Shown here: positions 1,844 through 20,000 of the stretch, in pieces
Position numbering within the stretch: position 1 is the first letter of the stretch
Layout of the letters: every line of letters begins with the position of its first letter
Virus record (IMG/VR): IMGVR_UViG_3300017780_003486
From: an uncultured virus (IMG/VR IMGVR_UViG_3300017780_003486)
Taxonomy: Duplodnaviria > Heunggongvirae > Uroviricota > Caudoviricetes
Reading direction: 5' to 3' (one strand)
Length of the DNA: 20,000 nucleotides
Position numbers and translations under genes: made by a program
The notes under the pieces: model-generated
Told to the model about the DNA's origin: nothing
Databases searched by the model: none
Seen by the model: the letters and a program-made list of their open reading frames with translations, nothing else

Positions 1844-3099
1844 AGCGCGTTCTCCTTCTTCCTAGCGGTTATCCGTACTTCTCTCGTCGCCCAGCCTAGC
1901 GACTCGTCGCCGCGAAGGTGGTTCTTGATCTTCGTCGAGAAACTACCGCACGTCTCGCACGTCCGGTGATCGAGGTCTTCGGAATAAGTCCACCGATGGA
2001 TGCACATCGGTCCTACGTCGGTGAGGTAAGTACGCCAGTGCGATTGGACCTCGTGACGTTTCTTCCTCCCGCCGCCAGCGATCTTCCTCGCGACGTAGCG
2101 AACGCGGCTCTTGACCCTTGGGAGGTTCAGCGTCACGACGTGCTTTTCGAAGCCCGGCCTCCCGGTCCCGTTTGCCGAACGTATCCGGGAACCGGTCGCG
2201 GTTCGCGGTTCGCTTACGACGATAGGGACCTCCGAGAGCATACAGAGGACGGTCGAAATCCAGCGCGTCATCCCGGCGTTCTCCGCAACGTCGGTCGCGA
2301 ACTGATCGAGGATACTATCGCGACTAACGCCCCGAACTCCGGGAGCCTCGTTTACCTTGACCATCAGTCTTCGGAACGCATCGCTATAGGCGATAGCCGC
2401 GTGCCTCGTAAGATAAGACGGGACGGAGTACGAGAGGCCGACGAAGTCTTTCGGACCGCTAAAGCCTCTCGGTCCGTTGCCGCGAACGTATCCCCAGACG
2501 CTTGCGGAGAGGTCTTCGGCCGATAGCCCTTCCTTTCCGGTAACGTCTACTTGCCCGCCGTGGGTCATACGCCACGACTCGATACCGCCGATCACCGACC
2601 GGTTGATATCGCCCTGTCCATCGGCGTCGAAGACAATCGCCATCGGGTGGACGACATATAGCGTCGTGTCGATCCCGCGAGAGTTCCTGATCTCGGCCTG
2701 TCCGATGAGCTGAATAGAGAAGGCGTTCGCGTTCTTCCTATCGCGGACTAGGAGGAGCGCGGCGATATCCCGAACGCGATCCGATACGGGACGATCCGGG
2801 GCCTCGCTCATCGCTATGGAAGCGGCGACCTTCACCCTCGGGTTATACTCCATCCATACGACGTCATACGGAAGGATCGTTCCTTGGACGCGAGCGAGAG
2901 CGTCTTCCGGAGTAACGACGGAGGCGCGAGCCGAGAGCTCAACGAAGTCGTCGTCGAGACGGAACTTCTTCGCCTTCATCATCAGGACCCGGTACTCGGC
3001 CATCGAGGCTTCGAGCGTCTTCTTCGTCGACCCGGTTACGTCGAGTGCTTTCGCGAAGCCGTATGTCGATGAGACGAAGCGTTCTGCTAGGTCTTCCAT
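1840..3099 (-). CDS. hypothetical phage protein with C-terminal HxVxxHWR...CxH...CxxC...HxRG motif
   Basis: 419-aa ORF; the basic C-terminal HEVQSHWR/HLRGD motif is familiar from uncharacterised phage proteins; possible Zn ribbon insert. Confidence 0.75.
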   Translation of the reverse strand: MEDLAERFVSSTYGFAKALDVTGSTKKTLEASMAEYRVLMMKAKKFRLDDDFVELSARASVVTPEDALARVQGTILPYDVVWMEYNPRVKVAASIAMSEAPDRPVSDRVRDIAALLLVRDRKNANAFSIQLIGQAEIRNSRGIDTTLYVVHPMAIVFDADGQGDINRSVIGGIESWRMTHGGQVDVTGKEGLSAEDLSASVWGYVRGNGPRGFSGPKDFVGLSYSVPSYLTRHAAIAYSDAFRRLMVKVNEAPGVRGVSRDSILDQFATDVAENAGMTRWISTVLCMLSEVPIVVSEPRTATGSRIRSANGTGRPGFEKHVVTLNLPRVKSRVRYVARKIAGGGRKKRHEVQSHWRTYLTDVGPMCIHRWTYSEDLDHRTCETCGSFSTKIKNHLRGDESLGWATREVRITARKKENAL

Positions 3100-3512
3100 A
3101 TCACTCTTCCCTCCTTATACAGATGCGGCTTCTCCGCGATCCTCGCGGCGATACGCTTTCGAACGATCTCCTCTGCGGAAACCGTCTCCTTCCAGTCACC
3201 GAAGAAGCGTGGCGGGATACGACCGCCGAAGCCGGGATCGCGGCTTTCGTCCGGTTGGTATCCGCGCCTGATCATCTCGCGCTGAAGCGCGGCATACCTC
3301 CGCTGGAGATAACGGAGCTTGTCGAAGAAGAAGAGGACGTGCCCCTTCCCTAGCGTGAAGGTCTTCGGTATCCGCGCGACGACCTCGGCCGGAGTAGCCG
3401 TTCGAAGAGAACGTCGAAGCGCGGCGGGAACCATCGGGAGTTCCCGGTACTCCGCTATCAGATGTCTTCGATGAAGACGCTTCGGATGGATGCCGGCGTT
3501 GATCCGCGTCAT
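3087..3512 (-). CDS. denV: pyrimidine dimer DNA glycosylase / endonuclease V (T4 DenV-like)
   Basis: MTRIN N-terminus (catalytic Thr2), HLIAEYRELP (catalytic Glu) and FTLGKGHVLFFFDKLRYLQRRY..L..EM..RGY all match T4 endonuclease V motifs; AGGAG RBS. Confidence 0.93.
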   Translation of the reverse strand: MTRINAGIHPKRLHRRHLIAEYRELPMVPAALRRSLRTATPAEVVARIPKTFTLGKGHVLFFFDKLRYLQRRYAALQREMIRRGYQPDESRDPGFGGRIPPRFFGDWKETVSAEEIVRKRIAARIAEKPHLYKEGRVIWKT

Positions 3513-3950: not shown

Positions 3951-4163
3951 TCAGGCTCCGTTCTTCCGTTCGCGCTGGATCGCGCCGACGTATGGGACGA
4001 GGAGCCTATCGACTTCCTCGCCAAGCGAGGTCGCATCGGAATATAGGACTCGAAGAAGCGCTTCCTTCCGTATCCCTTCCGGTTGACTCCTTTCGACGAT
4101 GAGGATAGCCGACGCGAGTTTATCTGATTGGATAACGAGTTCCGTGATTGGATGAAACTTCAT
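3951..4163 (-). CDS. hypothetical protein
   Basis: Start reassigned to ATG 4163 (MKFHPITELV...), which follows GAAAGGAAAG; 70 aa. Confidence 0.65.
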   Translation of the reverse strand: MKFHPITELVIQSDKLASAILIVERSQPEGIRKEALLRVLYSDATSLGEEVDRLLVPYVGAIQRERKNGA

Positions 4164-4224
4164 ACGCTTTCCTTTCCCTGCGGGTGATCGGTACTCGACC
4201 ACCCGCGCTTCTAGAGTTCGACGA

Positions 4225-5358
4225 TCAGGCGGCCTTCTTAACGTCGAGCGCGGTCGCTTCGAGGACCTGCTTCCAGTCGGCCTTGCCCCAGTTCATCATC
4301 TGACCACCGGCTTCCTCGAACTCGACCGCGCGGTCGTAGTTCTTCGCCGTATGAGCCTGATGCGTAACGGCGTTCAGGAGACCCCAAGCGGAGAGGTCAC
4401 CGCCTTCGATCAGCGACTTGAGGATGCCGGACGACTCTTCGTCCGACACGCCGACCTTCTGCGAGAGAACGACGACGGCGGCCTGCGGGTCCTTCTCGAC
4501 CTTGATGCCGGTCAGCGTCTGAGCGTGTTCGATCTGCTTCCGGAAGCGGTTCTCGTCGACCGCCGACTTGACCATGTCGCGGACCTTCGAGAGAACGAGC
4601 TTGTCGTCGAGCTTCCGGGTCGAGTCCGACCAGAGGTCTTCGTTGTCGTCGATCTTCCGGCCGACGTGGTTCGCGCGGAAGCGATCCATACCCTTCATCC
4701 CGTTGAGGCAGATCAGGCGCCAGATCACCGACGAGACCGAGACCGAGCCGCAGCCGACTTCGGAGTTCGTGATCAGGACACCGGCCTGAACCACGTCGCC
4801 CTTCTTGATCTCGCCCTCGATAGCGGGCGTGACGGCTTGGATGTACATCCGCTTGTCCGTGACCTCGCACGAAACGATCTTGACGTTCGGAAGCTCCGCG
4901 AGGATCGGAAGCGCAACGTCGGCGATCTCGTGGTTATCGATCCGGCTATAGCGGTTCGAGAGGAAGCCGCGAGCGTTCCCGTGGAGAGTGCGGAGCATCC
5001 GCTTGTCGGCCTCGCGTTCGAGGTCGTGCTTGAGCCACGAGTTGACGTTCATCGCCAACAGGTCGGGTTGCTTCTCCAACATCCGGTCGTAATACTTCGC
5101 CGGGATGCCGACGTAGGTTCCGAGCTGATTGTGGACGAGATCGAGCATCGGGAAGCGCTCGGCCTCCCGCGTTCCGTAGAGTTCGAGAACCGGCCGACGC
5201 TTCTTGATCGGCGTCTTCGCGTTACCGATGGGCGGCTCTTCATAGTCGTCGATCTGCATAGCGAGGCCCTTGCGGGTCTCGACGATGAAATCCTTCCGGG
5301 CATCGCGGTTGAACTCGATCTTGCGCGCGAAGTCGGCGAGGCTAATTCCCTTTTGCAT
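4225..5358 (-). CDS. DUF932/DUF945-like phage protein
   Basis: 377 aa; RGFLSNRYSRIDN, ITNSEVGCGSVSV, IWRLICLNGM and SAWGLLNAVT motifs are typical of the DUF932 family; AGGAG RBS. Confidence 0.8.
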   Translation of the reverse strand: MQKGISLADFARKIEFNRDARKDFIVETRKGLAMQIDDYEEPPIGNAKTPIKKRRPVLELYGTREAERFPMLDLVHNQLGTYVGIPAKYYDRMLEKQPDLLAMNVNSWLKHDLEREADKRMLRTLHGNARGFLSNRYSRIDNHEIADVALPILAELPNVKIVSCEVTDKRMYIQAVTPAIEGEIKKGDVVQAGVLITNSEVGCGSVSVSSVIWRLICLNGMKGMDRFRANHVGRKIDDNEDLWSDSTRKLDDKLVLSKVRDMVKSAVDENRFRKQIEHAQTLTGIKVEKDPQAAVVVLSQKVGVSDEESSGILKSLIEGGDLSAWGLLNAVTHQAHTAKNYDRAVEFEEAGGQMMNWGKADWKQVLEATALDVKKAA

Positions 5359-5380
5359 TTCGTTCTCCTGCTCTTCCTAT

Positions 5381-5442
5381 GGCCTATCTCGTCAGCGCCG
5401 GGTGGCCGTATCCGGCGGACGCTCCCGGAGGAGCGTTTCGAT
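5381..5442 (-). ncRNA. type II hammerhead ribozyme with loop I/3'-tail pseudoknot
   Basis: Sense RNA: AUC-GAAA-CGCUCC(UCCG)GGAGCG-UC^-CGCCGG(AUACGGCCAC)CCGGCG-CUGACGA-GAU-AGGCC. The core is intact (CUGANGA, GAAA, GUC triplet, G10.1-C11.1) and stems I-III all pair. Predicted cleavage is between 5418 and 5417. Confidence 0.9.
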
Positions 5443-5804
5443 TATCCTTCTTCGTCGCTCGGGAGCGGTTCGATCCGCTTCCAAGCCTGATCGGGACCGC
5501 GCGGCGATCCGATATCGGCGATGCGCTTCTCCGATAGAAGCTCGCGAATGAGGTCCCACTGGTCTCGATGGACCTCCATACCGTCACAAGCCGAAGCGAC
5601 TTGGACGATGATCCGTTTCTCGACTTCCTTCTTCGCCATATCGATATCGTTGAAGAAAGCCGGTTCCTTCTTCGAAGACCAAACGCGGTCTTCGTTCTCT
5701 TCGAGAGTGAACCGATACGGACCGACCGGAGTTCGAATGATCCTCCAGTATATCCGGCCGAAGATTTCGGATCGGTACGCCTTGACGACGCCAGCGTCGT
5801 TCAT
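5442..5804 (-). CDS. hypothetical protein
   Basis: 120 aa; GGAGG RBS; ATGA overlap; its TAA stop overlaps hammerhead stem II. Confidence 0.7.
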   Translation of the reverse strand: MNDAGVVKAYRSEIFGRIYWRIIRTPVGPYRFTLEENEDRVWSSKKEPAFFNDIDMAKKEVEKRIIVQVASACDGMEVHRDQWDLIRELLSEKRIADIGSPRGPDQAWKRIEPLPSDEEG

Positions 5805-6052
5805 TCAACCCTCCATCCGAACGTCTTCCATCCCGCTTGATGCGGAGTCCACTCGCGGACCGAAGACGCCGATACGAGCTTGACGTATCGGCGCTCTGGT
5901 CCGTATTCGTTCAGCTTCGACGCCTCTTCGATATTCGCCGGGTAAGCCCGGTCGTGAGAGAGCATATCGAAAGGGAACGTGCCGGCTCCGCTCACTACGA
6001 ACTCGTAGCGAACGGCCGGGACCGATAGCCGGTCAAGTCTTCGGAGGTTCAT
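5801..6052 (-). CDS. hypothetical phage protein (FxVxGxGxFPxDML motif)
   Basis: Start reassigned to ATG 6052 (ATGA overlap, GAGG RBS); 83 aa. Confidence 0.65.
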   Translation of the reverse strand: MNLRRLDRLSVPAVRYEFVVSGAGTFPFDMLSHDRAYPANIEEASKLNEYGPERRYVKLVSASSVREWTPHQAGWKTFGWRVE

Positions 6053-6312
6053 TGGTGCTGATACCTCTTCCGTTCGATGGACGGCCAATGCCGCTGGGCT
6101 TCTTCGTACTTCAGTTTCGAGCCCCGGAGCGATACGGCTACAGCAGCGCTGCCAACCTCCTCTCCATCTTCGTGGTCGACTATCCCTTGATAGGCAACCT
6201 GAGTATTCGTCCCATCGTCTTCGACGAGAACGGCTAGGAGTATCCGCCGCTTCGATCCCCTACCGAGATAGGGGACCGTGGGGCTATGGATACCGATGAT
6301 CTTGCGGCTCAC
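6049..6312 (-). CDS. hypothetical protein
   Basis: 87 aa; GTGA overlap with the upstream gene. Confidence 0.6.
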   Translation of the reverse strand: MSRKIIGIHSPTVPYLGRGSKRRILLAVLVEDDGTNTQVAYQGIVDHEDGEEVGSAAVAVSLRGSKLKYEEAQRHWPSIERKRYQHQ

Positions 6313-7397
6313 TTCTTGGCCGCCTTCTTCTTCGCCGCTACCTTCTTCGGAGCGGCCTTCGGAGCGGCCTTCGGAGCGGCCTTCTTTGGGGCCGCCTTCG
6401 GGCTCGCCTTCGGACTCGCCTTCTTCGCCGCTACCTTCTTCGGTGTCGCCTTCGGACTCGCCTTCTTCGGTTCGGCCTTCTTGATGCCGACGTTCGTCAC
6501 GATCTGCGGTCGCGGCGTCTTCTTCTCCGGCTCCGTCTTCGTCGCGGCCGGAGGAGTAGCAGCCGGGGCGGCCTTCTCCGGGAGACCGTCGCGGAGCGTA
6601 AAGGCGTGTCCCTTCAGGGTCGCCTTCCCATCCTTGATGAGAAGAGCGCGAAGCGCCTTACGTTCGGAGTCCGCGATGCCGAGAGCCTTCAGCGCGGTCT
6701 TGATCGTCCCGTAAGACTTCCCGCCGACCGTCACGGCGATGCTCCCGGAAATCCCACCGCCTTCCTTCTTCGCTCGCGGCGTCGTCTCGCCGTTCGCTCG
6801 CGCGGTCTTATTCGCCTCGCGCTCGGCTTTCCTCTTCGCCTTCGCGTCTCGTTTCGCTTGTCTCTCGCGCTCGCGAACAACCTGCGCCGCCTTCTTCCGG
6901 ACCTCGGCCGACTCGGGAGCCGCCTTCTTCCTGACCTCGATGGTCTCGGCGGTCACGATCGTGATGCTCGCGTCGGCGATCTGCCCGCTAAGGACGTAGA
7001 GTTCGGGCGTGTACCAGTCGTTGAACGCTTCGAGGTTATCGAATAACTGCGACCTCGTACCGGCTTCGGTAACGAGATTGACTTGGACTGGCTTCATCGG
7101 GTCCTGCGGCGTGATCTTATCGATAGGCATTTGAAACTCCTTCGCTTTCGGCATAATCCATTCGCGCTCGGTATTGAGCAGACGCTTCAGTTCTTCGGGG
7201 CTCTTCTTCGGTCTGTTCGACCGGAGGAACTTCGGTATGACCCAGACGCAATCCGGGTGATGGTAGGAACCGGCCGGGGCTCCGCACTCTTCGCAAGCCC
7301 TGAGGCCAACGGGAGTATCGGACAAAGTCGGTTCGGAAGCGACGACCGGAGCCGCCGTCTTCTTAGGTGTCGATGACGATTTCTTCTTGGCGACCAT
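6309..7397 (-). CDS. Lys/Ala/Pro-rich histone H1-like protein with N-terminal Zn-finger-like motif and small HTH-like domain
   Basis: C-terminal PKKAAPKA-type repeats; CEEC...HHPDC; VTVGGKSYGTIKTALKALGI segment. Start at 7397 (GGAG RBS) or 7412. Confidence 0.75.
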   Translation of the reverse strand: MVAKKKSSSTPKKTAAPVVASEPTLSDTPVGLRACEECGAPAGSYHHPDCVWVIPKFLRSNRPKKSPEELKRLLNTEREWIMPKAKEFQMPIDKITPQDPMKPVQVNLVTEAGTRSQLFDNLEAFNDWYTPELYVLSGQIADASITIVTAETIEVRKKAAPESAEVRKKAAQVVRERERQAKRDAKAKRKAEREANKTARANGETTPRAKKEGGGISGSIAVTVGGKSYGTIKTALKALGIADSERKALRALLIKDGKATLKGHAFTLRDGLPEKAAPAATPPAATKTEPEKKTPRPQIVTNVGIKKAEPKKASPKATPKKVAAKKASPKASPKAAPKKAAPKAAPKAAPKKVAAKKKAAKK

Positions 7398-7467
7398 CGG
7401 AGGACTCTCCATCGGTGAAGGAAGACGAGACGAGAAGGACGATGAGGACGGCGACGATCCACCGCAT
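7363..7467 (-). CDS. small membrane or signal-peptide-bearing protein (34 aa)
   Basis: Below the ORF-track cutoff; ATG directly follows the upstream TAG, with GAAAGGA RBS: MRWIVAVLIVLLVSSSFTDGESSDGRQEEIVIDT. Confidence 0.5.
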   Translation of the reverse strand: MRWIVAVLIVLLVSSSFTDGESSDGRQEEIVIDT

Positions 7468-7743
7468 CTATGCGATCCTTTCCGGGTACGCCTCGGGGAA
7501 CGAGGTCATCAGTTGGATGGCCGCCTCGTCGGCGATCTGGATGGCCATATTCCTCCGAAGACGAAGACGAATGTAGTCGTCGTCCGTCAGGAGGTTCTCA
7601 AGAGCCCGAGCCTCTTCCTCGCGCTTTTCTTCGCGAAGCTGGATCGCCTTCCGTCCGATCTCGAAGCGAACGCCGTGACTCGTGAGAGGACGGAGCCGCA
7701 TCTGCTTGCGGAGTTTTTCGACTTTCTTCTGTAGGGTATTCAT
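7468..7743 (-). CDS. hypothetical protein
   Basis: 91 aa; AGGAG RBS right after repeat A. Confidence 0.75.
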   Translation of the reverse strand: MNTLQKKVEKLRKQMRLRPLTSHGVRFEIGRKAIQLREEKREEEARALENLLTDDDYIRLRLRRNMAIQIADEAAIQLMTSFPEAYPERIA

Positions 7744-7756
7744 CTCTTCTCCTGCT

Positions 7757-7817
7757 CCAGCGAAAGCGCTGGCGGATCGAGCGGAGCCGAAGCGCCGCTC
7801 TCACCGTTAGGGCTTTC
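7757..7817 (-). repeat. structured intergenic element, copy A (variant GAAAGC/GCTTTC)
   Basis: Sense: GAAAGCCCTAACGGTGAGAGCGGCGC-TTCG-GCTCCGCTCGATCCGCCAGCGCTTTCGCTGG. Confidence 0.95.
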
Positions 7818-8227
7818 TAGTTCTTCGTATAGACCGCGAGGCGATAATAGATCGGGCTGATGCCTTCTACCTCTTCGGTGGTTCGGAAATGGCGCCTGAC
7901 CTGCGCCTTCGCGAGTTCTTCGGGAGTGAGGTCTTTGACCGCTTCCTCGGCTTCACGAATGAATGCCGGCGGCGGATGTCCATCGCCCTCTTCCCAGTAC
8001 GTCGCCAAGAACTTCGCGACGAGCAACCGAAGATCGCTCGGCGGTTCGATAACGAGTAGCGACGTGTCGAACCGTTGCGATGCGTGATTGGTCCCGGCCT
8101 CTCGTATATAACACGCCGTCTGGTTCCGTCCGGGAACGATGCGAACGATTTCCCAGAGCGTTTCTCCGACGCCTTTCCCGCCAGCGAGCTTGACGCGGAC
8201 CTTATCGCCTATCTTGAATTTCGTCAT
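7817..8227 (-). CDS. hypothetical protein (N-terminal SH3/KOW-like FKIGDKVRV motif)
   Basis: 136 aa; lies between repeats B and A; AGGAG RBS. Confidence 0.75.
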   Translation of the reverse strand: MTKFKIGDKVRVKLAGGKGVGETLWEIVRIVPGRNQTACYIREAGTNHASQRFDTSLLVIEPPSDLRLLVAKFLATYWEEGDGHPPPAFIREAEEAVKDLTPEELAKAQVRRHFRTTEEVEGISPIYYRLAVYTKN

Positions 8228-8243
8228 CGAGTTCTCTCCTATA

Positions 8244-8304
8244 CCAGCGGAAGCGCTGGCGGATCAAGCCCCGGATCATCGAGGCTCTCACCGTTAGAGC
8301 TTCC
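8244..8304 (-). repeat. structured intergenic element, copy B
   Basis: Sense: GGAAGCTCTAACGGTGA-GAGCCTCG-ATGATC-CGGGGCTT-GATCCGCCAGCGCTTCCGCTGG; two G-U pairs in the variable stem. Confidence 0.95.
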
Positions 8305-8930
8305 TAGAGAGCTTCTTCGTTAGCGCGAGGCCGAGCAAGCTCGTGAGCCTTGAGCCCGATACACCGCTTGCAGTTGACCTCCTCCCACTTAGACCGGACG
8401 CGCGCCTTCGACTGCCGGAACGAAAACCGGTTCCCGCTCGATACTGCCGTGCAGAGCGGACGACCGAAACCGCTACGGCTGAAGTGGATCGGCGCTGGCC
8501 GCTTCGGCTTCGTCTTCTTCTCTATCGTATCCTCCTCCGAAGGCCCGAGCGGCGCTCCCTTCGGTCGGAAGCGCATACCGGAGATATGGCCGCGACTGAA
8601 GTTATGACCGTCCTTCGTCCGAAGGAGCCAATCTCTGACGGCACTTTCGAGGTCGCCGGAAATCCGGATGCCGTAGTCGGGGCCGCGCACGCCGTTGGTC
8701 CCCCACTCAAGGCCGTGCGAGGTCTCGTAAGCGAAGGAGCGAACCTGCCGAACGATGTCGGCGGCGCAGAGATAGAACGTCCGCGTGTACCAGCGGCGAC
8801 CGTACTTTCCGAAGTCGCCATCCGGGTGGTCCTTCTCCTGCTTCGCGCGATCCTTAAGGTTGTCGGCCCAGAGGAAGTCCCACGCGGCGGGGATCGCCTT
8901 GGCGATGTCGAACGAAAAACGCTTTCCCAT
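8304..8930 (-). CDS. hypothetical protein with C-terminal His/Cys motif (H...C...CxxC)
   Basis: 208 aa; AGGAGG RBS; its TAG overlaps repeat B. Confidence 0.75.
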   Translation of the reverse strand: MGKRFSFDIAKAIPAAWDFLWADNLKDRAKQEKDHPDGDFGKYGRRWYTRTFYLCAADIVRQVRSFAYETSHGLEWGTNGVRGPDYGIRISGDLESAVRDWLLRTKDGHNFSRGHISGMRFRPKGAPLGPSEEDTIEKKTKPKRPAPIHFSRSGFGRPLCTAVSSGNRFSFRQSKARVRSKWEEVNCKRCIGLKAHELARPRANEEAL

Positions 8931-8942
8931 AATCGTGTCCTC

Positions 8943-9191
8943 CTATCGAACGGCGGTGGTCGAAAGCGAATAGATCGGCCGCCAGACGACGTGTACTTCG
9001 TCCGTCCCGCTCGGGCCGTAGAGGAAGCAAGGGAGTGACGTGTTCTCCGTCTCCCGTTCGATACGACGAACCGCGTCGATGTGTAAGCGAAGGTAGCGCG
9101 CGATCACCGGCAGCGGAGCGCGCATCACAAACGAGAGGTCGTTCTTATCGCTCTTCGGGGCGACCGACAGATCGTACAACTGAATGGCCAT
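8943..9191 (-). CDS. hypothetical protein
   Basis: 82 aa; AAAGGA RBS after repeat C. Confidence 0.7.
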   Translation of the reverse strand: MAIQLYDLSVAPKSDKNDLSFVMRAPLPVIARYLRLHIDAVRRIERETENTSLPCFLYGPSGTDEVHVVWRPIYSLSTTAVR

Positions 9192-9210
9192 AGGTTACGT
9201 CCTTTCTATT

Positions 9211-9271
9211 CCAGCGGAAGCGCTGGCGGATCGAGCCCCGGATCGTCGGGGCTCTCACCGTTAGAGTTTCC
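9211..9271 (-). repeat. structured intergenic element, copy C
   Basis: Sense: GGAAACTCTAACGGTGA-GAGCCCCG-ACGATC-CGGGGCTC-GATCCGCCAGCGCTTCCGCTGG. Confidence 0.95.
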
Positions 9272-10243
9272 TCACTTCTTCTCGACTTGGAGGTCGAGGC
9301 CGATCTTGTCGCCGGCAACCCGTCCGACGCTGAACGCTTCTCCCTTCTTCGCGTTCTTCGCGTTCTCGCGAGCGTTCTTCTTGTAGTATTCGCGAGCGGC
9401 CTTCTTCGCGTCCTCTTCGCTATAGCCGTGGCTCCGATAGAACGCTTCGACCCAATCGACGCCTTCGCTTTCGAGGCGTTCGGCGACGAGGCGACGCTCG
9501 CGCTCAGACGCCTCGCGGCCTTTCCTCCGGGCCGCCGTCGTTCCGGCCGGGAGGCCATAGCGAAGATCGGCGTTGAGGTCTTCTTCCGAGCCGTAGACAT
9601 CCGAGAGGAGGACAAGGCCCGTGCCGGGAGTAGCGCTACCCGTCGCGGCGGTCGCCTTCCGACGAGCGGCCTCCGCTTCGGCTTCTTCGCGCTCCCGCTT
9701 CGCGCGCTGGGCGAAAAGACGTTCAGAGAGACGCGAGACCGCGCCGTCAAAGAAGAGCGCGTTGTCGGAGGTCCCGTGGTCGTATCCGTGACGCGCGGCC
9801 TCGCGCCCAATCGACTTGACGAGATAGTCGTAAAGGGCAATCGTTCCTTGGATGTTGATCGTCCGCCCGATCAGAACGTGGAAGGTCGACTTCTTGAGCC
9901 CGAGATGTCGGCGGCTCTTGAGCGTCCGCTCGACGAGCTTCTCCTGCACGAAGTGGATGCAGAAGTTCCCCTTCGCGAGAGCGGCCATAAGCTCGCGCTG
10001 CCACTTGTACATCGCGCGCCGATCCGTCTCGGCCTTCTCGCGATCCGTCATCGCGTCGGCGTTACGCTCCGAAGCCGTGACCTGCGCGAGCGACAAGCCG
10101 TAGTCCTGAAGGAGTTCCTGTACCTTCGCCGCAGCGCTCTCGGCTTCGGCGGCCGACGAGTTCTTATTCTTATCGGCGAGGGCGAGGAGCTTCTTGATAC
10201 GCTCGATCACTTTCTCGGTCGGCATCTGCTGTTGGTTCGTCAT
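9272..10243 (-). CDS. DUF2786 domain protein
   Basis: N-terminal KVIERIKKLLALA...AEAESAAAKVQELLQDYGLS is the DUF2786 pattern; C-terminal AFSVGRVAGDKIGL; AAGGAG RBS. Confidence 0.85.
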   Translation of the reverse strand: MTNQQQMPTEKVIERIKKLLALADKNKNSSAAEAESAAAKVQELLQDYGLSLAQVTASERNADAMTDREKAETDRRAMYKWQRELMAALAKGNFCIHFVQEKLVERTLKSRRHLGLKKSTFHVLIGRTINIQGTIALYDYLVKSIGREAARHGYDHGTSDNALFFDGAVSRLSERLFAQRAKREREEAEAEAARRKATAATGSATPGTGLVLLSDVYGSEEDLNADLRYGLPAGTTAARRKGREASERERRLVAERLESEGVDWVEAFYRSHGYSEEDAKKAAREYYKKNARENAKNAKKGEAFSVGRVAGDKIGLDLQVEKK

Positions 10244-10258
10244 CTATCTCTCCTTATC

Positions 10259-10319
10259 CCAGCGGAAGCGCTGGCGGATCAAGCCTCGTACTATCGAGGC
10301 TCTCACCGTTAGAGCTTCC
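10259..10319 (-). repeat. structured intergenic element, copy D
   Basis: Variable stem GAGCCTCG-ATAGTA-CGAGGCTT with consensus flanks. Confidence 0.95.
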
Positions 10320-10666
10320 TACGGCGAAGCGTCCCATCCGGCAGCGCGTTCGGCCGCGCGGATACCGGAAAGGTCGTATGACCGCTCGCGCCTCCGGTCG
10401 GCAAGGCCGACGGCACGCTCGACTTCTTCGAGAGGCCATCCGACGTATCGAGCGAACCGCTCGCGCGCCTTCGCCTCGTTCATCGTCTTCTTGACCGGCC
10501 GTCCTTCGACCTTGCACCAGACGACGAGGCCGAGATGGATCGTCGTCTTCCTCTTTCCTTTCCTCTCTACCGTGTACTCGACGAAGGAGTACGGGTCGTG
10601 GCGCGGTCCCTCGTCGCCGTTCTTGACCGTGATCGAACCGCTCGTCGTCTTATAGCGTTCATACAT
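10319..10666 (-). CDS. hypothetical basic protein
   Basis: 115 aa; lies exactly between repeats E and D; AGGAG RBS. Confidence 0.75.
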   Translation of the reverse strand: MYERYKTTSGSITVKNGDEGPRHDPYSFVEYTVERKGKRKTTIHLGLVVWCKVEGRPVKKTMNEAKARERFARYVGWPLEEVERAVGLADRRRERSYDLSGIRAAERAAGWDASP

Positions 10667-10680
10667 TCGTCTCTCCTATC

Positions 10681-10742
10681 CCAGCGGAAGCGCTGGCGGA
10701 TCGAGCCCCGGATCGCGTCGGGGCTCTCACCGTTAGAGCTTC
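10681..10742 (-). repeat. structured intergenic element, copy E
   Basis: Variable stem GAGCCCCG-ACGCGATC-CGGGGCTC; the TAA inside the element is the methyltransferase stop codon. Confidence 0.95.
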
Positions 10743-11245
10743 ACGAGTTGCGTAGCGAGACAGATGTTTCTCTCGACGATCCCGCAGATCAATTGGAAAC
10801 CGATCTTAAGGCGCCAGTCGATGCGTCCGCCTTCCCGATCATATGTAGTGTCGGTGAAGAGGTTCTTGAACGTCTCTTCCGTCCACGACGATTTGTGATC
10901 GAGGTTCTGATGCTGTAGTTGCGAATTATAGTACGGCACCACGATAAGCGCGGAACCGCCCGGCTTCAGAACTCGATTTATTTCCTCGACGACTTTCGTA
11001 GCGGTCGAGCCGTCGAGATGTTCGAAGAAGTGATAAGCGACCACTCCCGCCACTTCTTCGTCTCCGAACGGGATCGTATCTCGTCGAGCATCCCAATCGG
11101 GAAGATCGAGGTTGGTCGTTTCGTAGGGAAGGGCCTTTCGACCGGAGCCGAGGTTGATTATCGGCCCGGATGGAAAAGAAAGGATGGCCGGAACGTCCCG
11201 GCTCATCCCCCAGCGAAACAGGTCTTGAAAGCGAACTTCCTTCAT
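10733..11245 (-). CDS. class I SAM-dependent methyltransferase (Methyltransf_11-like)
   Basis: INLGSG (motif I), NLD, IPFGDEEV, HFFEHL and EINRVLKPGG..IVVP motifs; AAGGAGG RBS. Confidence 0.85.
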   Translation of the reverse strand: MKEVRFQDLFRWGMSRDVPAILSFPSGPIINLGSGRKALPYETTNLDLPDWDARRDTIPFGDEEVAGVVAYHFFEHLDGSTATKVVEEINRVLKPGGSALIVVPYYNSQLQHQNLDHKSSWTEETFKNLFTDTTYDREGGRIDWRLKIGFQLICGIVERNICLATQLVKL

Positions 11246-11248
11246 TGA

Positions 11249-11590
11249 CTAAGCCTCCTTAACGATCTGAAAGGTAACGGAACGCTTGCCGTTCTCGAAC
11301 ACGGCCCGACCGCTCGCCTTCAACGACTTGCGAAACCGGGCACACTGGGCGGCGGTCCCGAGCTTCAGCGACTTGAAGGCGCTCCAGGCGCTATCGTACT
11401 TCTTGCCGCCGACCTTAACGGCGTGGCGGGTGGCCCGCGCCTTCATAACCTTGTCCGACGCGGCCTTCTTCGCCGTCTTCTTCGCGACCTTCTTGACCGC
11501 GACCTTCTTGACCGCGACCTTCTTCGTGTTCTCGGCCGAAGCCTTGACGACGTTGGCGACGACGGCGACGTTGTTCTTCTTGGCGTTCAT
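11249..11590 (-). CDS. histone H1-like Lys/Ala-rich DNA-binding protein
   Basis: KKVAVKKVAVKKVAKKTAKK repeats followed by a VKVGGKKYDSAWSAFKSLKL domain; AGGAG RBS. Confidence 0.75.
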   Translation of the reverse strand: MNAKKNNVAVVANVVKASAENTKKVAVKKVAVKKVAKKTAKKAASDKVMKARATRHAVKVGGKKYDSAWSAFKSLKLGTAAQCARFRKSLKASGRAVFENGKRSVTFQIVKEA

Positions 11591-11640
11591 AGTAGTCTCC
11601 TATTTCGAAGTACCCGCTCGTCCTCTCGGGATCGGAGCGT

Positions 11641-11697
11641 CCAGCGGAAGCGCTGGCGGATCGAGCGGCCGTAGCCGCTCTCACCGTTAGAGCTTCC
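11641..11697 (-). repeat. structured intergenic element, copy F
   Basis: Variable stem GAGCGGC-TACG-GCCGCTC (cUACGg tetraloop). Confidence 0.95.
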
Positions 11698-11792
11698 TAG
11701 TAGTTCCGCTCGTCGTTCTCCGGGTCTCCGATAAGCCAGAGGACGAGAGCTGCCGCGATCCACGGCGAGAGTAGTTGAACAGCGAGCCACAT
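11697..11792 (-). CDS. small membrane protein (31 aa)
   Basis: Below the ORF-track cutoff; AGGAGG RBS; MWLAVQLLSPWIAAALVLWLIGDPENDERNY; its TAG overlaps repeat F exactly as for the other genes. Confidence 0.65.
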   Translation of the reverse strand: MWLAVQLLSPWIAAALVLWLIGDPENDERNY

Positions 11793-11804
11793 CAGACGGT
11801 CCTC

Positions 11805-12005
11805 CTAGTACCGGGTGCCGTAGTAGAGCCACGGATTGTTGGGGTGGCGCTTGTTCATCACGCGATGAAACTCACGTACGATGCCGTCACTGACATTCAA
11901 CTCTCTGACGATCTCGCTCTTGCTGAAGCGAGCCAGAAAGACGTTGGTGAAGACGTAGATGACCTGAAGGTAGATGGCCTGAGACAGTTCGTTCATAATG
12001 TTCAT
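11805..12005 (-). CDS. hypothetical protein
   Basis: 66 aa (or 63 aa from the second Met, which is better spaced from AGGAGG). Confidence 0.65.
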   Translation of the reverse strand: MNIMNELSQAIYLQVIYVFTNVFLARFSKSEIVRELNVSDGIVREFHRVMNKRHPNNPWLYYGTRY

Positions 12006-12009
12006 CCTC

Positions 12010-12147
12010 CTAAGCGATCAGATATCCGTACCGATTGTACCAGCCTCGTCTCGTCTTGATCGGTCGGCTCCGGGTTCCTTTTCGAGACGCGGCGAATTCA
12101 CATTCGAGCCGTATCGCGTCACATAGCGCTTTCAGATCGAACGTCAT
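12010..12147 (-). CDS. small basic hypothetical protein (45 aa)
   Basis: Below the ORF-track cutoff; ATGA overlap and GAGGAG RBS; MTFDLKALCDAIRLECEFAASRKGTRSRPIKTRRGWYNRYGYLIA fills the gap exactly. Confidence 0.6.
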   Translation of the reverse strand: MTFDLKALCDAIRLECEFAASRKGTRSRPIKTRRGWYNRYGYLIA

Positions 12148-12371
12148 CGCGCGCTCTCCTCTTCGTTAAGGCGACGAACCACCGCGTCGATATCGGCCTG
12201 TCGGTCGCCGCTCTTAACGATCTTGAGGTTCTTCCGGCGAACGCCGAGCCCTTCGTCGTAGAGGTCGTCTGCTTCGTCCGCGACGGTCGCGCGGTCGTAG
12301 TCGCCGAAGTGGATCGCCCACGGGCTCTTATCGTCGTCTCGCGTCACGAGCGTGTAATACGTCTTCGCCAT
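12144..12371 (-). CDS. hypothetical phage protein
   Basis: Start reassigned to ATG 12371 (MAKTYYTLVTRDD...WAIHFGDYDR), after AAGGAG and repeat G; 75 aa. Confidence 0.8.
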   Translation of the reverse strand: MAKTYYTLVTRDDDKSPWAIHFGDYDRATVADEADDLYDEGLGVRRKNLKIVKSGDRQADIDAVVRRLNEEESAR

Positions 12372-12389
12372 CGTCGTCTCCTTCGTTAC

Positions 12390-12450
12390 CCAGCGGAAGC
12401 GCTGGCGGATCGAGCGGCACCGAAGCGCCGCTCTCACCGTTAGAGCTTCC
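12390..12450 (-). repeat. structured intergenic element, copy G
   Basis: Variable stem GAGCGGCGC-TTCG-GTGCCGCTC (cUUCGg tetraloop, one G-U pair). Confidence 0.95.
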
Positions 12451-12740
12451 TAGTAGTTGACTTCGTAGTAGCGACGACCATCGCGACCGAGAGAACGAAG
12501 GACCTTCGCTTGGTGGAGTGCTTTGACCGCTTCGGTGAGGTCGACCGTCTCGACGTTGTTAAGTGCCGCTCCGATCCGGTTGATCTGATCGATGTCGATC
12601 ATCGCGTAATACATAACCCGGAAGACCCGAGCCGCGAGTGCGGTCGACGGCGACCAGTTCGCCTTTACCTCTAAGAAGCCGTCGAGCAGTTCGAACGTCT
12701 TCGCTTCTTCTTCGGACCGCTTCGAATAATCCTTAGCCAT
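12450..12740 (-). CDS. hypothetical protein (possible wHTH-like C-terminus)
   Basis: 96 aa; lies exactly between repeats H and G; AAGGAG RBS. Confidence 0.75.
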   Translation of the reverse strand: MAKDYSKRSEEEAKTFELLDGFLEVKANWSPSTALAARVFRVMYYAMIDIDQINRIGAALNNVETVDLTEAVKALHQAKVLRSLGRDGRRYYEVNY

Positions 12741-12760
12741 CGTCGTCTCTCCTTCGTTAT

Positions 12761-12817
12761 CCAGCGGAAGCGCTGGCGGATCGAGCGGCCGCAGCCGCTC
12801 TCACCGTTAGAGCTTCC
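12761..12817 (-). repeat. structured intergenic element, copy H
   Basis: Variable stem GAGCGGC-TGCG-GCCGCTC (cUGCGg tetraloop). Confidence 0.95.
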
Positions 12818-13071
12818 TAGTTCTCGTCGTTAAGCTCGCTATCGGCGAACTCTTCCCAGAGGAAGCGCTCGGCTTCCTCGATGGTCCCGAATGTCCGGTC
12901 GTCTCCGGCGAGGCTCACTTCGTAATGAGCGCTGGTCGACCCTTCGTTCGGCACGCCGATATAGAAGGCGTCGAGGTAGAGGTATCCGGCGAACTCCGCG
13001 AAGCCGCTCGTGTACGGCGCGAGGTTCGAGACGTACTTACGCGATGCCTTGAACTCTTCGAACGTCGTCAT
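12817..13071 (-). CDS. hypothetical acidic protein
   Basis: 84 aa; lies exactly between repeats I and H; AAGGAG RBS. Confidence 0.75.
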   Translation of the reverse strand: MTTFEEFKASRKYVSNLAPYTSGFAEFAGYLYLDAFYIGVPNEGSTSAHYEVSLAGDDRTFGTIEEAERFLWEEFADSELNDEN

Positions 13072-13090
13072 GGTCTTTCTCCTTCGTTAC

Positions 13091-13151
13091 CCAGCGGAAG
13101 CGCTGGCGGAGACCGACACGACGGATCGTGTCGGCTACCGTTAGAGCTTCC
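13091..13151 (-). repeat. structured intergenic element, copy I (fully replaced inner stem)
   Basis: Sense: GGAAGCTCTAACGG-TAG-CCGACACGA-TCCG-TCGTGTCGG-TCT-CCGCCAGCGCTTCCGCTGG. Confidence 0.95.
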
Positions 13152-13157
13152 TGATCG

Positions 13158-13352
13158 TTAGCGCTTCTTGCCGCCGATGTTCGGCTGCGGGTTGAACTCC
13201 TTCGGCTTACGTTCGAACGTCGCGCCCTGATCGTAGTTCTCGACGAGCTGTTCGGCTTCCTTATGAGCCTTCGCCGAGTAGAGCGACCACATCGGCGTGT
13301 GCAGAACCTTCTGAGCATTACGATACGACTTGGATGAAATCCGATAAGCCAT
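13158..13352 (-). CDS. hypothetical protein (first gene of the repeat-punctuated array)
   Basis: 64 aa; AAGGAG RBS after repeat J. Confidence 0.75.
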   Translation of the reverse strand: MAYRISSKSYRNAQKVLHTPMWSLYSAKAHKEAEQLVENYDQGATFERKPKEFNPQPNIGGKKR

Positions 13353-13373
13353 GTTCTTCTCCTTCTTCGTTAC

Positions 13374-13435
13374 CCAGCGGAAGCGCTGGCGGATCGAGCG
13401 TCGTTAGTATCGACGCTCTCACCGTTAGAGCTTCC
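13374..13435 (-). repeat. structured intergenic element, copy J (5'-most, no upstream gene)
   Basis: Variable stem GAGCGTCG-ATACTAA-CGACGCTC with consensus flanks. Confidence 0.95.
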
Positions 13436-13439
13436 TCTT

Positions 13440-13480
13440 TTAAGTTAGTAGCATAACCTCAGTCGCGACGGCTTCATAGA
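13440..13480 (-). promoter_or_regulatory. possible sigma70-type promoter for the accessory array
   Basis: -10-like TATGCT at 13455-13450 in a local AT-rich patch just upstream of copy J; the -35 match is poor. Confidence 0.3.
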
Positions 13481-14139
13481 GCGCATCGGTTCGTTATGCA
13501 TCGATCTCTCTTCGCTAAACTCCGCGTCTCGCACTCGGACGGGGAACGGCCTCCGCGCTTAAGAGCCTCTATCGTTCCGGCGACTAGAGCGACGGGGGAA
13601 CGATTTCAGGACTTATCTATTCAGCGACTTGGGGCGGGATAGGAAGAGGCTAGACCCGTCCCGATCCGAACGCCGAGGCCGCTTCTCCTTTCGGCCTACA
13701 GAGGAGGACGAGGAAAGGAGAGCAGAGCCATCGGCCCAGAAGGGGCGATAGGGTCTAGGGTTCTTTAGCCGGGGCCGCCTAGAGTGCTAATCGAACCTCG
13801 CCGTTTTGGCTGCAAGCGGTTCGAAGAGCCTAGCAGGGCGCTTCTAATTTTTCCCCGGTTCCCTCCAGCGGCCTCCACGCGACCCTAAGTTACGGAGGGG
13901 AACCAGCGAGGCCCGGAGGCCCCGCCCCTCCGACGTTCCCGCCGGAGGTAGGCTCATTATAGAAAGAAAGAGGAAGGAAGGAAGGCCCGAAAACCGATTT
14001 TTTAGGCCCCATATATAGTAGGGGTCCGGGCCGCCCCGGTCCGGGAGCCCTCCCGGAGCTCAGGAAAGGCCCAAAATCGACAAGGCTAAAAGCCTTACGC
14101 CATCGGCATTAAAACGAAACCACGACCAAAACAGGCGTT

Positions 14140-18369: not shown

Positions 18370-18675
18370 CTAGGCTTCGGCGGCTGCCGGCGCTGCGGGC
18401 TTCACCTTCTTGGTCTTCAGGATGCCGGCGTCGATGCTCTTCGTGATCAGGCCGCGCTTCGCGCTCGTGTTCTTGATCACGTCGGCGACCGTGCAGCCGG
18501 GGTTCTTGCCGACATACTTGGCCATGTCCGCGAACCGCGCGTGCGCCGCGCTTCCTTCCCGGCGCGGGTTCTCGCCGACCGACACGATCTGCATGTCCGC
18601 GCCGTACTTCATCTTTGCCGGAGCCTTCTTCTTCGCCGCGACCTTCTTCTTCGCGGCCTTCTTCTTCGCTGCCAT
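18370..18675 (-). CDS. small basic histone-like protein
   Basis: Start reassigned to ATG 18675 (MAAKKKAAKKKVAAKKKAPAK), followed by an NPRREGSAAHARF domain; 101 aa. Confidence 0.7.
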   Translation of the reverse strand: MAAKKKAAKKKVAAKKKAPAKMKYGADMQIVSVGENPRREGSAAHARFADMAKYVGKNPGCTVADVIKNTSAKRGLITKSIDAGILKTKKVKPAAPAAAEA

Positions 18676-18759
18676 GTTCCTGTCCTTCCTTACTTTCTTT
18701 CTCTCGCCCATTATTGGGGAGCCCACTTAGCTAACCTACGAACTACACGGATGAAAGAC

Positions 18760-20000
18760 CTATGTTGACGAGGATTTGGCCCTATTGCGCTCCTCCGCTT
18801 GGCTCATCTCCCCTAGATACTTGATCGCCGTGATGCGGATCATCCGGAAGTCCTTCGGAACGTCACCCTTGACCGCGAAGATACTCTTCCCGACCTTCGC
18901 CTGTGCGGCGACGTTACGACCGATCTGCTGGAAGTTCCTGTAGGTGATCTTGCAGAATATCTCCCCGGTATCGTCTTCGAAGAAAAGATTGAGCGCGTCG
19001 GCCGGTTCCGGAAGAACCTCCTGTTGTCCGTTCGCCTTTCTACGCGCCTGACGTGCCGGTACGTTCTCGTTAAGCGGTTGAACCTTCGAGACGCGAGCGA
19101 CGATAACGACGCCGTATTCTCCTCCACCGATCTGATCGATAGGGGTCGGCTTCGTAACGATCCCGACTGCCGGGAGGTCGGGAACGATCTTCTCGACCGC
19201 ATCGGCAATGGGCGTGAGCGAGTTCAGTTTCGTCTGGGCGTTCGCGAGCTTCTTCAAGATCGATGGGCGAAGCTCCTTCTTCGCTACGCGAGCGTCGAGA
19301 ATATCGCGAACGGTTGACGGACCGATCCCGTGGATATTCGAAAGCGGCCCGACGAGTACCGGCTTCCCGGAGTCTTCGCCGATCTCCCAACGGTCGGTGG
19401 ATACGGCCGGATCGAACGCGACATAGTTGACGCCGATCTCCTTCATCTCGCGAAGAGCCGCGACCTGACGCATCTGGTCGTCTTCCGCATCGAGTGTAGC
19501 GGCGGCGAACTCGACCGGATAGTGAACCTTGAGCCAGCAGCACCAGTACGATATAAGACCGTAGGCGACGGAGTGGCTTCGGTTAAACGACCACATGCCG
19601 AACTGACACATACGATCCCAGAACGAGTTCGCGAGCCGTTCGGTCATACCGCGCTTGATTGCTCCGGCCTTCCAACGGTCGCCGAACTGGTCGAAGTATT
19701 CCTTTCCGAGAGACTTCGACATCGCCTTGCGGAGCGCGGTCACGTCGTCCCAAGTAAGGTCTCCGATCTCGCGACCGATTGACATGATCTGCTCCTGATA
19801 GACCACGAGCCCGAGGGTACTCTTCAGGTGGGGCTCTAGCATCGGGTGCTCGTACTCGACGCGCTCCTTCCCGGCGCGGCGTCTGATCCACTGGTCGGTC
19901 ATACCCGAGCCCAGCGGGCCGGGACGGACAAGCGCGGTGAGGGCGATCAGGTCTTCGATATGATCGAGCTTCCCGCCAACGTCGTTACGGAGACGGCGAA
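18760..20000 (-). CDS. dnaE: DNA polymerase III alpha subunit (family C, DnaE-like), C-terminal part
   Basis: The frame is open to the window end: IEDLIALTALVRPGPL, TLGLVVYQEQIM, LRKAMSK, SFNRSHSVAY..ISY..WLKVHYPVEF, HhH motif LSNIHGIG, C-terminal OB fold (FEDDTGEI). Confidence 0.93.
   Translation of the reverse strand, partial: RRLRNDVGGKLDHIEDLIALTALVRPGPLGSGMTDQWIRRRAGKERVEYEHPMLEPHLKSTLGLVVYQEQIMSIGREIGDLTWDDVTALRKAMSKSLGKEYFDQFGDRWKAGAIKRGMTERLANSFWDRMCQFGMWSFNRSHSVAYGLISYWCCWLKVHYPVEFAAATLDAEDDQMRQVAALREMKEIGVNYVAFDPAVSTDRWEIGEDSGKPVLVGPLSNIHGIGPSTVRDILDARVAKKELRPSILKKLANAQTKLNSLTPIADAVEKIVPDLPAVGIVTKPTPIDQIGGGEYGVVIVARVSKVQPLNENVPARQARRKANGQQEVLPEPADALNLFFEDDTGEIFCKITYRNFQQIGRNVAAQAKVGKSIFAVKGDVPKDFRMIRITAIKYLGEMSQAEERNRAKSSST

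Follow-up and report, generated by a model that had tools for sequence, protein, structure and literature searches.

A repeated structured RNA that appears to interchange with hammerhead ribozymes ahead of small genes in an uncultured freshwater phage

Introduction

Why the self-cleaving ribozymes of bacteria and phages lie between genes is stated as an open question (PMC6765202). The locus described here raises it in a specific form. It lies in a stretch of 20,000 nt (the window) that is part of the genome of an uncultured freshwater phage (IMG/VR record IMGVR_UViG_3300017780_003486). In the window, a run of mostly small genes contains a single type II hammerhead ribozyme and ten copies of a repeat of about 60 nt, and both elements fill the space between the stop codon of one gene and the ribosome binding site (RBS) of the next. 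If a second, unrelated RNA replaces hammerheads ahead of the same genes, its role shows what this slot requires.

Results

Position of the hammerhead and the repeat

The elements and genes of the run are listed below; helix names are those of the structure section.

5442..13352, minus strand: gene run of 20 mostly small genes, which the repeats divide into ten units, six of a single gene and four of several genes
5378..5443, minus strand: type II hammerhead ribozyme (RF02276), core 5386-5443, 46.7 bits in Rfam against a gathering score of 37
4225..5358, minus strand: DUF932 gene downstream of the hammerhead (PF06067, E 4.7e-7)
13374..13435, minus strand: repeat copy J, in the first slot behind a non-coding leader, with no gene upstream
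13091..13151, minus strand: repeat copy I, with a variant 3x3 loop and a different P3, beginning 6 nt after the upstream stop
12761..12817, minus strand: repeat copy H, from the pattern search
12390..12450, minus strand: repeat copy G, from the pattern search
11641..11697, minus strand: repeat copy F, with an extra hairpin and the start codon 50 nt downstream
10681..10743, minus strand: repeat copy E, within which the upstream methyltransferase gene terminates
10259..10319, minus strand: repeat copy D, preceding a DUF2786/DUF7168 gene
9211..9271, minus strand: repeat copy C, from the pattern search
8244..8304, minus strand: repeat copy B, whose P3 hairpin is that of copy G in a sister strain
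7757..7817, minus strand: repeat copy A, with a compensatory G-C to A-U change in P1

The pattern search returned ten minus-strand copies of the repeat with lengths of 57-63 nt and none in 200 shuffles. The gene calls in 5442..13352 combine open reading frames (ORFs) with inspection of the RBS. When the DUF932 gene is included, the run comprises 21 genes from 13352 to 4225. In this run, the first slot and all ten gaps longer than 12 nt are occupied by the repeat or the hammerhead, and at the remaining 10 of the 20 junctions the genes overlap or lie no more than 12 nt apart. Of the nine copies that have an upstream gene, eight touch or overlap its stop codon at their 5' end (six overlap it by 1 nt, one abuts it, and one has it inside the motif). 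The start codon follows 13-21 nt 3' of the repeat in nine of ten copies, copy F (11641-11697) being the exception. An earlier note on this sequence had placed the hammerhead and ten repeats of about 60 nt on one strand of a single gene run, in one stop-to-RBS slot, and both the coordinates and the slot geometry bear this out.

The hammerhead is the sole Rfam match in the window, and a descriptor search of the window also returned one hammerhead only. Stems I, II and III occur in type II order with 6, 3 and 6 bp, and the core conforms to that of the class. The cut site is predicted to lie between 5418 and 5417, and a 4-bp pseudoknot with the 3' tail is possible. The element shares 2 nt with the upstream stop, and 27 nt separate its 3' end from the start codon. 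Identical, self-complementary 4-nt pseudoknot letters are found in the hammerheads that precede DUF932-family genes in three phages (window 5378-5443, L024 about 9920-9985 and L280 5646-5709; L numbers denote loci fetched for comparison).

The earlier note had also drawn attention to an identity of 11 nt between the sequence after the hammerhead (5363-5373) and the sequence leaving copy A (7747-7757). The identity is real, but it carries little weight: the 11 nt are largely RBS, and 10 of them recur ahead of a start codon in 2 of 131 other loci (L030 and L055), in L030 at a junction without an element. As evidence, it is weak.

Interchange with hammerheads at homologous junctions

Eight of the ten repeat-led genes of the window have a homolog in the fetched loci. 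For three of these eight (the genes behind copies C, H and E), a hammerhead stands ahead of the homolog, two cases being secure and one weak. The gene behind copy C has a 60% identical homolog in L277 that is led by a type II hammerhead; this ribozyme scores 26.5 bits, below the cut-off, and has a full core with stems of 6, 4 and 8 bp. The gene behind copy H has a 38% identical homolog in L030 that is led by a type II hammerhead of 43.4 bits, above the Rfam cut-off. The complete L030 genome contains no copies of the motif, and the locus contains three hammerheads. In the weak case, the gene behind copy E has a 29% identical homolog in L069 that is flanked by hammerhead-like elements, and the element at this junction (27.9 bits) is below the cut-off and fails the hammerhead descriptor. 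At two further junctions of the eight the motif is retained, for copy F in L223 and L277 and for copy D, as a variant, in L177. The homologies thus indicate that the repeat and hammerheads replace each other at homologous junctions, and the comparison of related phages for such replacement, which the earlier note had suggested, is positive at three of eight traceable junctions, one of them weak.

The same pattern is seen at other genes. A gene that is led by the motif in L190 has a 41% identical counterpart in L277 led by a hammerhead; in the window, neither element precedes this gene. L166 contains two paralogs (67% identical), of which one is led by the motif and the other by a hammerhead, and their RBS regions are nearly alike. 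Behind colinear leaders, L192 has the motif in its first slot and L166 has a hammerhead there. At the DUF932 junction, a hammerhead is present in the window, L190 and L024, a long hairpin in L177, and a divergent motif in the L309 group (L309, L314 and L316). This divergent motif is a partial model match of 23.3 bits, and the protein encoded behind it is a DUF932 homolog with a probability of 99.9%. Other large hairpins lie on both sides of the DUF932 gene of L177.

Two loci carry several hammerheads close together. In L166, two identical type II hammerheads (1869-1935 and 2150-2216) also have identical upstream sequence, and this sequence identity marks them as a recent duplication of a ribozyme cassette. 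In L069, an array of type I/III hammerhead-like elements lies among small genes at 6267-9500, upstream of a DUF932 homolog.

Structure of the repeat

From 5' to 3', the motif consists of P1a (4-6 nt), a 5-nt linker with the consensus N-Y-U-N-A, P2a (3 nt), UGA, the P3 hairpin, GAU, P2b, CCAGC, a loop of 4-8 nt (P1b) and GCUGG. These segments form P1 (4-6 bp), P2 (3 bp), a 3x3 loop (U-U, G-A, A-G), the variable hairpin P3 and the 3' hairpin P4, whose loop is the pairing partner of the 5' strand of P1. In 38 aligned copies, 97.0% of 790 cells are paired and 15 of 21 pairs are changed on both sides, compared with 31-46% paired cells in slid controls; the 38 copies are related, and the shuffle control is not readable as a probability.

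All four helices covary. Six of six P1 pairs do so, including in matches whose 5' side the scan pattern left unspecified. P4 is invariant in the 38 copies, but it was part of the patterns used to find them. A scan without P4 in the pattern recovered compensated P4 helices in L318, L294/L319 and the L309 group, and L305 and L308 without P4. Fifteen columns are invariant in the 38 copies, many of them fixed by the search patterns, and copies from the freer scan include exceptions.

The linker can also pair with the 5' arm of P4. A U-A pair is present in 38 of 38 copies and a C-G or U-G pair in 37 of 38. A fully paired 5-bp extension between linker and P4 arm was rejected as a whole (49.5% paired), with only these two pairs holding in 37-38 of 38. 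Copies with a weak P1 tend toward an additional G-C pair between linker and P4 arm, although eight of the 12 come from L190 and so do not count as independent cases. The L309 group has a linker completely complementary to the P4 5' arm. One strand therefore has two partners.

The fold in which P1 and the linker are paired, here called the rod, is more stable than the P4 form by a median of 3.3 kcal/mol (41 rows, of which two window rows are mis-anchored). In silico, P4 has a probability of 0.00-0.41 in seven of the ten intact window copies and of 0.78-0.99 in three. When the first 11 nt are removed, the probability is 0.84-0.99 in ten of ten. Rod and P4 are best regarded as competing folds; a simultaneous P1 and P4 pseudoknot is a possible alternative.

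When the window copies are read as minus-strand RNA, five of five tetraloops are of the UNCG type and the wobble pairs are G-U. In a tally of loops and helices over 46 rows, which include one false row (L319 8661) and in which the parser fixes several letters, the P3 loops of four bases conform, in the sense orientation, to UNCG or GNRA in 23 of 30 cases. Because these loops and the G-U wobbles read on the mRNA strand, the repeat is a sense-strand RNA element. The longest unbroken helix has a median of 8 bp (range 5-11), and about 19 bp are reached in total with stacked loops.

A sister virus record, G001, is 99% identical to the window, which it covers, and is 44.6 kb long and about 64% complete. 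The two records have 44 differences in 5378-13435, of which 15 are within repeats. Ten of the 15 represent one event, in which copy B acquired the hairpin of copy G (window 8244-8304 versus G001 19106-19166), that is, gene conversion among repeats. Such conversion may also shuffle gene cassettes. The other five differences all preserve the fold (an A-C mismatch to G-C, G-U to G-C, C-G to U-G and two loop changes).

Distribution of the repeat family

Outside the window and G001, 38 distinct copies occur in about 13 contig sets (L166+L177, L190+L192, L223, L273, L280, the L276 group, L277, L279, L318, the L319 group, L305, L308 and the L309 group). Joined pairs share one assembly, and each pair probably represents one phage. 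A metagenome scan with the P4 loop left free returned 81 stretches in 80 loci, of which five loci, with 24 copies, are real. Two later scans of viral sequences, with different parts left free and partly overlapping records, yielded 9 real loci of 23 and 17 of 39. Strict pattern scans of viral contigs gave two and three matches, all of them chance matches without the fold. A scan of bacterial and archaeal genomes gave 45 loci, none with the fold; many of these presumably resemble RNase P RNA. Model R1 had no match in 82 DUF932 loci or 51 gp34-like loci (best E 0.21). Model R2 added only L078, a match of 29 bits on the opposite strand that was not accepted.

Some of the phages that carry the motif are of another kind than the window phage. 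L305 and L308 have a layout with a helix-turn-helix (HTH) repressor and an ERF recombinase, and in the L309 group the DUF932 homolog is nearest to cyanophage and actinophage proteins. No copy was found in cultured phages or plasmids by BLAST, nor by the model in parts of RHph_Y60 and Pam4. In L192, a degenerate copy without the 3' tail lies immediately ahead of a complete copy (1034-1181).

The motif is absent from Rfam 15, with no match to the repeat at E<=1 in the window or at E<=10 in 12300-13500. A literature search found no description of it, the large alignment files of PMC10690425 not being covered, so that a prior listing as an unnamed candidate is possible; files 3-6 of that supplement contain no match to the motif strings or record identifiers. 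The repeat is a real and apparently uncatalogued phage RNA family. The arrangement is a variant of a known one, and the RNA itself is new.

Comparison with known elements

The repeat was compared with known classes that occupy similar positions. It is not a hammerhead, as neither Rfam nor the descriptor finds a hammerhead core or three-way junction in the copies of the window. No copy gave a covariance-model match near the gathering score for twister, twister-sister, pistol, hatchet, hepatitis delta virus (HDV)-like or RAGATH motifs, the best chance match being RAGATH-9 with 15.7 bits against a cut-off of 75.2. The helix order is also unlike that of the pistol, twister and HDV-like folds. An intrinsic terminator was rejected, since no minus-strand terminator-like site lies at any copy and a purine-rich RBS follows instead of a U-tract. 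Integron attC sites have conserved AAC and GTT core ends. The repeat does not qualify as attC: the middle one of its AAC-like letters can be any of the four bases in homologs, and a GTT end further along that strand is lacking.

Compared with the intergenic type II hammerheads (RF02276), the repeat has the same stop-to-RBS slot, the same genes and a similar length, but lacks the hammerhead core and three-way junction. Clustered hammerheads of phage and prophage operons, tandem arrangements included, cleave in vitro (Perreault et al. 2011, PMC3088659). Processing of polycistronic RNA has been proposed for intergenic hammerheads and is not settled (PMC3088659, PMC6765202). The logic of discovery is that of the RAGATH orphans, twister-sister, pistol and hatchet, which were found by ribozyme context (PMC6765202); here, gene-by-gene replacement strengthens it.

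The early RNase III sites of T7, such as R1.1, are likewise irregular hairpins of about 50-60 nt between early genes, and in sites of this type internal loops can restrict cutting to one strand, which leaves a protective hairpin (PMC1540722, PMC8708148). Unlike R1.1, the repeat has a longest unbroken helix of only 8 bp (median), GC-rich stems and a second fold, P4, and its sequence is more strongly conserved across unlike phages. Stabiliser hairpins at 5' termini, exonuclease-resistant RNAs and synthetic RiboJ-type insulators also give the RNA a structured 5' end immediately before an RBS. In contrast to these, the repeat is natural and multicopy, has two competing folds and lacks an Rfam match.

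Discussion

The proposed role of the repeat

On present evidence, the repeat probably plays the same part as the hammerhead, as an element for processing or 5' capping. It would mark the division points of a long phage message and supply the next gene with a structured 5' end ahead of its RBS. The RNA would first fold as the rod, with its 5' strand paired to the P4 loop and to part of the P4 5' arm. When cutting or digestion removes this strand, the remainder would refold into stacked P2-P3 and P4 hairpins, located 13-21 nt ahead of the start codon and with no 5' nucleotides left unpaired. Since the upstream stop is often inside the 5' strand, only a cut at motif position 11 or further 3' would be useful. 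The product would carry P2-P3 plus P4. A cut between P2 and P4 would instead give a product with P4 alone and leave P2-P3 as a 3' hairpin on the upstream RNA. The 3' product of a type II hammerhead begins with stem I. The output common to motif and hammerhead may be a divided message whose parts start with a paired 5' end at the RBS.

Among the routes by which the message could be divided, self-cleavage is the likeliest single one, though only a tentative choice. It is favoured because of the direct interchange, the conserved non-standard loops, the spread over unlike phages and the poor fit to the 11-bp rule of E. coli RNase III. Cutting by a host endonuclease such as RNase III is somewhat less probable; stacked short helices can suffice for this enzyme (PMC1540722). 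Lower still is the probability that the repeat stalls decay arriving from upstream. The earlier note's alternative, a 5' blocker, would fit the second fold equally well. In its most specific form, which is tentative, the proposal is that the repeat may be a new class of small self-cleaving ribozyme, interchangeable with the hammerhead, that cuts early messages gene by gene and whose 3' product refolds into a protective double hairpin at the RBS.

Several observations weigh against an equivalent role and against self-cleavage in particular. The slot is not exclusive to ribozymes, as plain hairpins or no element are found at other homologous junctions. Relatives have other plain hairpins at the junction of copy J (one of the eight traceable junctions) and no element at the junctions of copies G and B (two of eight; for G in L030), and the L030 homolog of the gene behind copy E has no element upstream. 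Among DUF932 loci of the viral set, a hammerhead lies within 170 nt in 1 of 73 and the motif in 0 of 73. P4 is missing from the L305 and L308 variants, the 3x3 loop is changed in window copy I, two L177 copies and one L277 copy, and a 2x2 loop is replaced by pairs in the L309 group. No loop is universal, and the repeat is therefore unlike a fixed catalytic core. P4 is already dominant in the intact RNA of three of the ten window copies. The median longest helix falls short of the 11 bp needed by E. coli RNase III (PMC1540722). Motifs found through ribozyme context frequently failed to cleave (PMC6765202), and in a further study 10 of 10 non-hammerhead motifs tested did not cleave (PMC10085705). 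The earlier note's view of the repeat as a functional analogue of the hammerhead is therefore supported in part: the interchange speaks for a same-slot role, but the slot also holds plain hairpins or nothing.

Alternative explanations

A reading without any cut is that the repeat is a ribosome-operated translation switch or RBS insulator, in which the terminating ribosome strips the 5' strand, P4 forms, and adjacent initiation is tuned or insulated. The translation-coupled pseudoknot of IncI/IncB rep genes is comparable. The upstream stop ends at motif position +1, +2, +4 or +11 in most copies, the rod is the more stable fold by the median given above, and in nine of ten window copies the 15 nt that follow have a larger unpaired fraction when the 5' strand is removed. 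However, the stop position ranges from -43 to +11, the Shine-Dalgarno sequence is unpaired in both folds, and an extra hairpin precedes the RBS in some copies. Copies in the first slot (window J and L192), which lack an upstream gene, speak against pure translational coupling, and replacement by a cleaving ribozyme would be left unexplained. This explanation is unlikely on balance, about as probable as cutting by a host endonuclease. Less probable is an element that acts on transcription, either as a repeated structure that prevents Rho-dependent polarity or as an antitermination signal of the put/nut type. L305 and L308 each have one copy, close to the beginning of an operon that comes after an HTH repressor gene and includes an ERF recombinase gene, and lambdoid phages have put/nut-like antitermination signals at such positions. 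A hammerhead cut would presumably uncouple Rho too. Against this stand the ten to seventeen copies per operon, always ending at an RBS, the terminators between genes, which do not exceed chance, and the lack of an Rfam match to put/nut-like or related elements.

The exchange of sequence between copies (copy B with the P3 of copy G in G001) and the duplicated blocks in L166 would also suit a repeat that acts as DNA, such as a hairpin promoter or cassette recombination site, with an incidental RNA fold. This is very improbable. It is largely refuted by the strand-specific RNA signatures, as the UNCG and GNRA loops and the G-U pairs read on the mRNA strand; in addition, the five single changes between strains all preserve the fold, and the attC-like AAC letters vary among homologs. 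Conversion is more plausibly a side effect, one that keeps the copies alike.

For the processing or capping role, both outcomes of a cleavage assay would be informative. Cleavage would make the repeat a new ribozyme class, and its absence would mean that the slot needs a protected or insulated 5' end rather than chemistry. As a candidate ribozyme of a new kind the repeat is open to test, and it probably helps to split or protect a long message.

The phage and other features of the window

The phage stretch contains genes for DNA polymerase III alpha, an exonuclease, Pam3 gp33/gp34-like proteins, DUF932 and DUF2786/DUF7168 proteins and a methyltransferase. The closest cultured matches are remote (about 34-36% for the polymerase and 36% to Rhizobium phages for the tail tube). 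G001 was searched for tRNA genes and contains none. Most of the window is present in two freshwater DNA runs, one of which may be its source. In DNA contigs of a second run, the gene order is unchanged and no joint skips a cassette.

The run is preceded by one further feature.

13436..13880, minus strand: non-coding leader, whose upstream half has sequence blocks in common with the L192 and L166 leaders

This leader is presumed to be the promoter region. The blocks common to the three phages (window 13436-13880, L192 225-470 and L166 2200-2460) have no match to the sigma-70 consensus and are probably an early promoter or genome-end region. Sigma-70-like promoters and terminators were sought, and none were above chance level.

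A different stable hairpin with an RBS lies immediately 3' of the DUF932 stop (4163-4225). A gene for an endonuclease V-type pyrimidine dimer glycosylase (PF03013) is present at 3087-3512. Three ORFs of the window are rich in lysine and alanine and histone-like (6309-7397, 11249-11590 and 18370-18726); homologs of the one at 11249-11590 sit behind the motif in L223 and L277.

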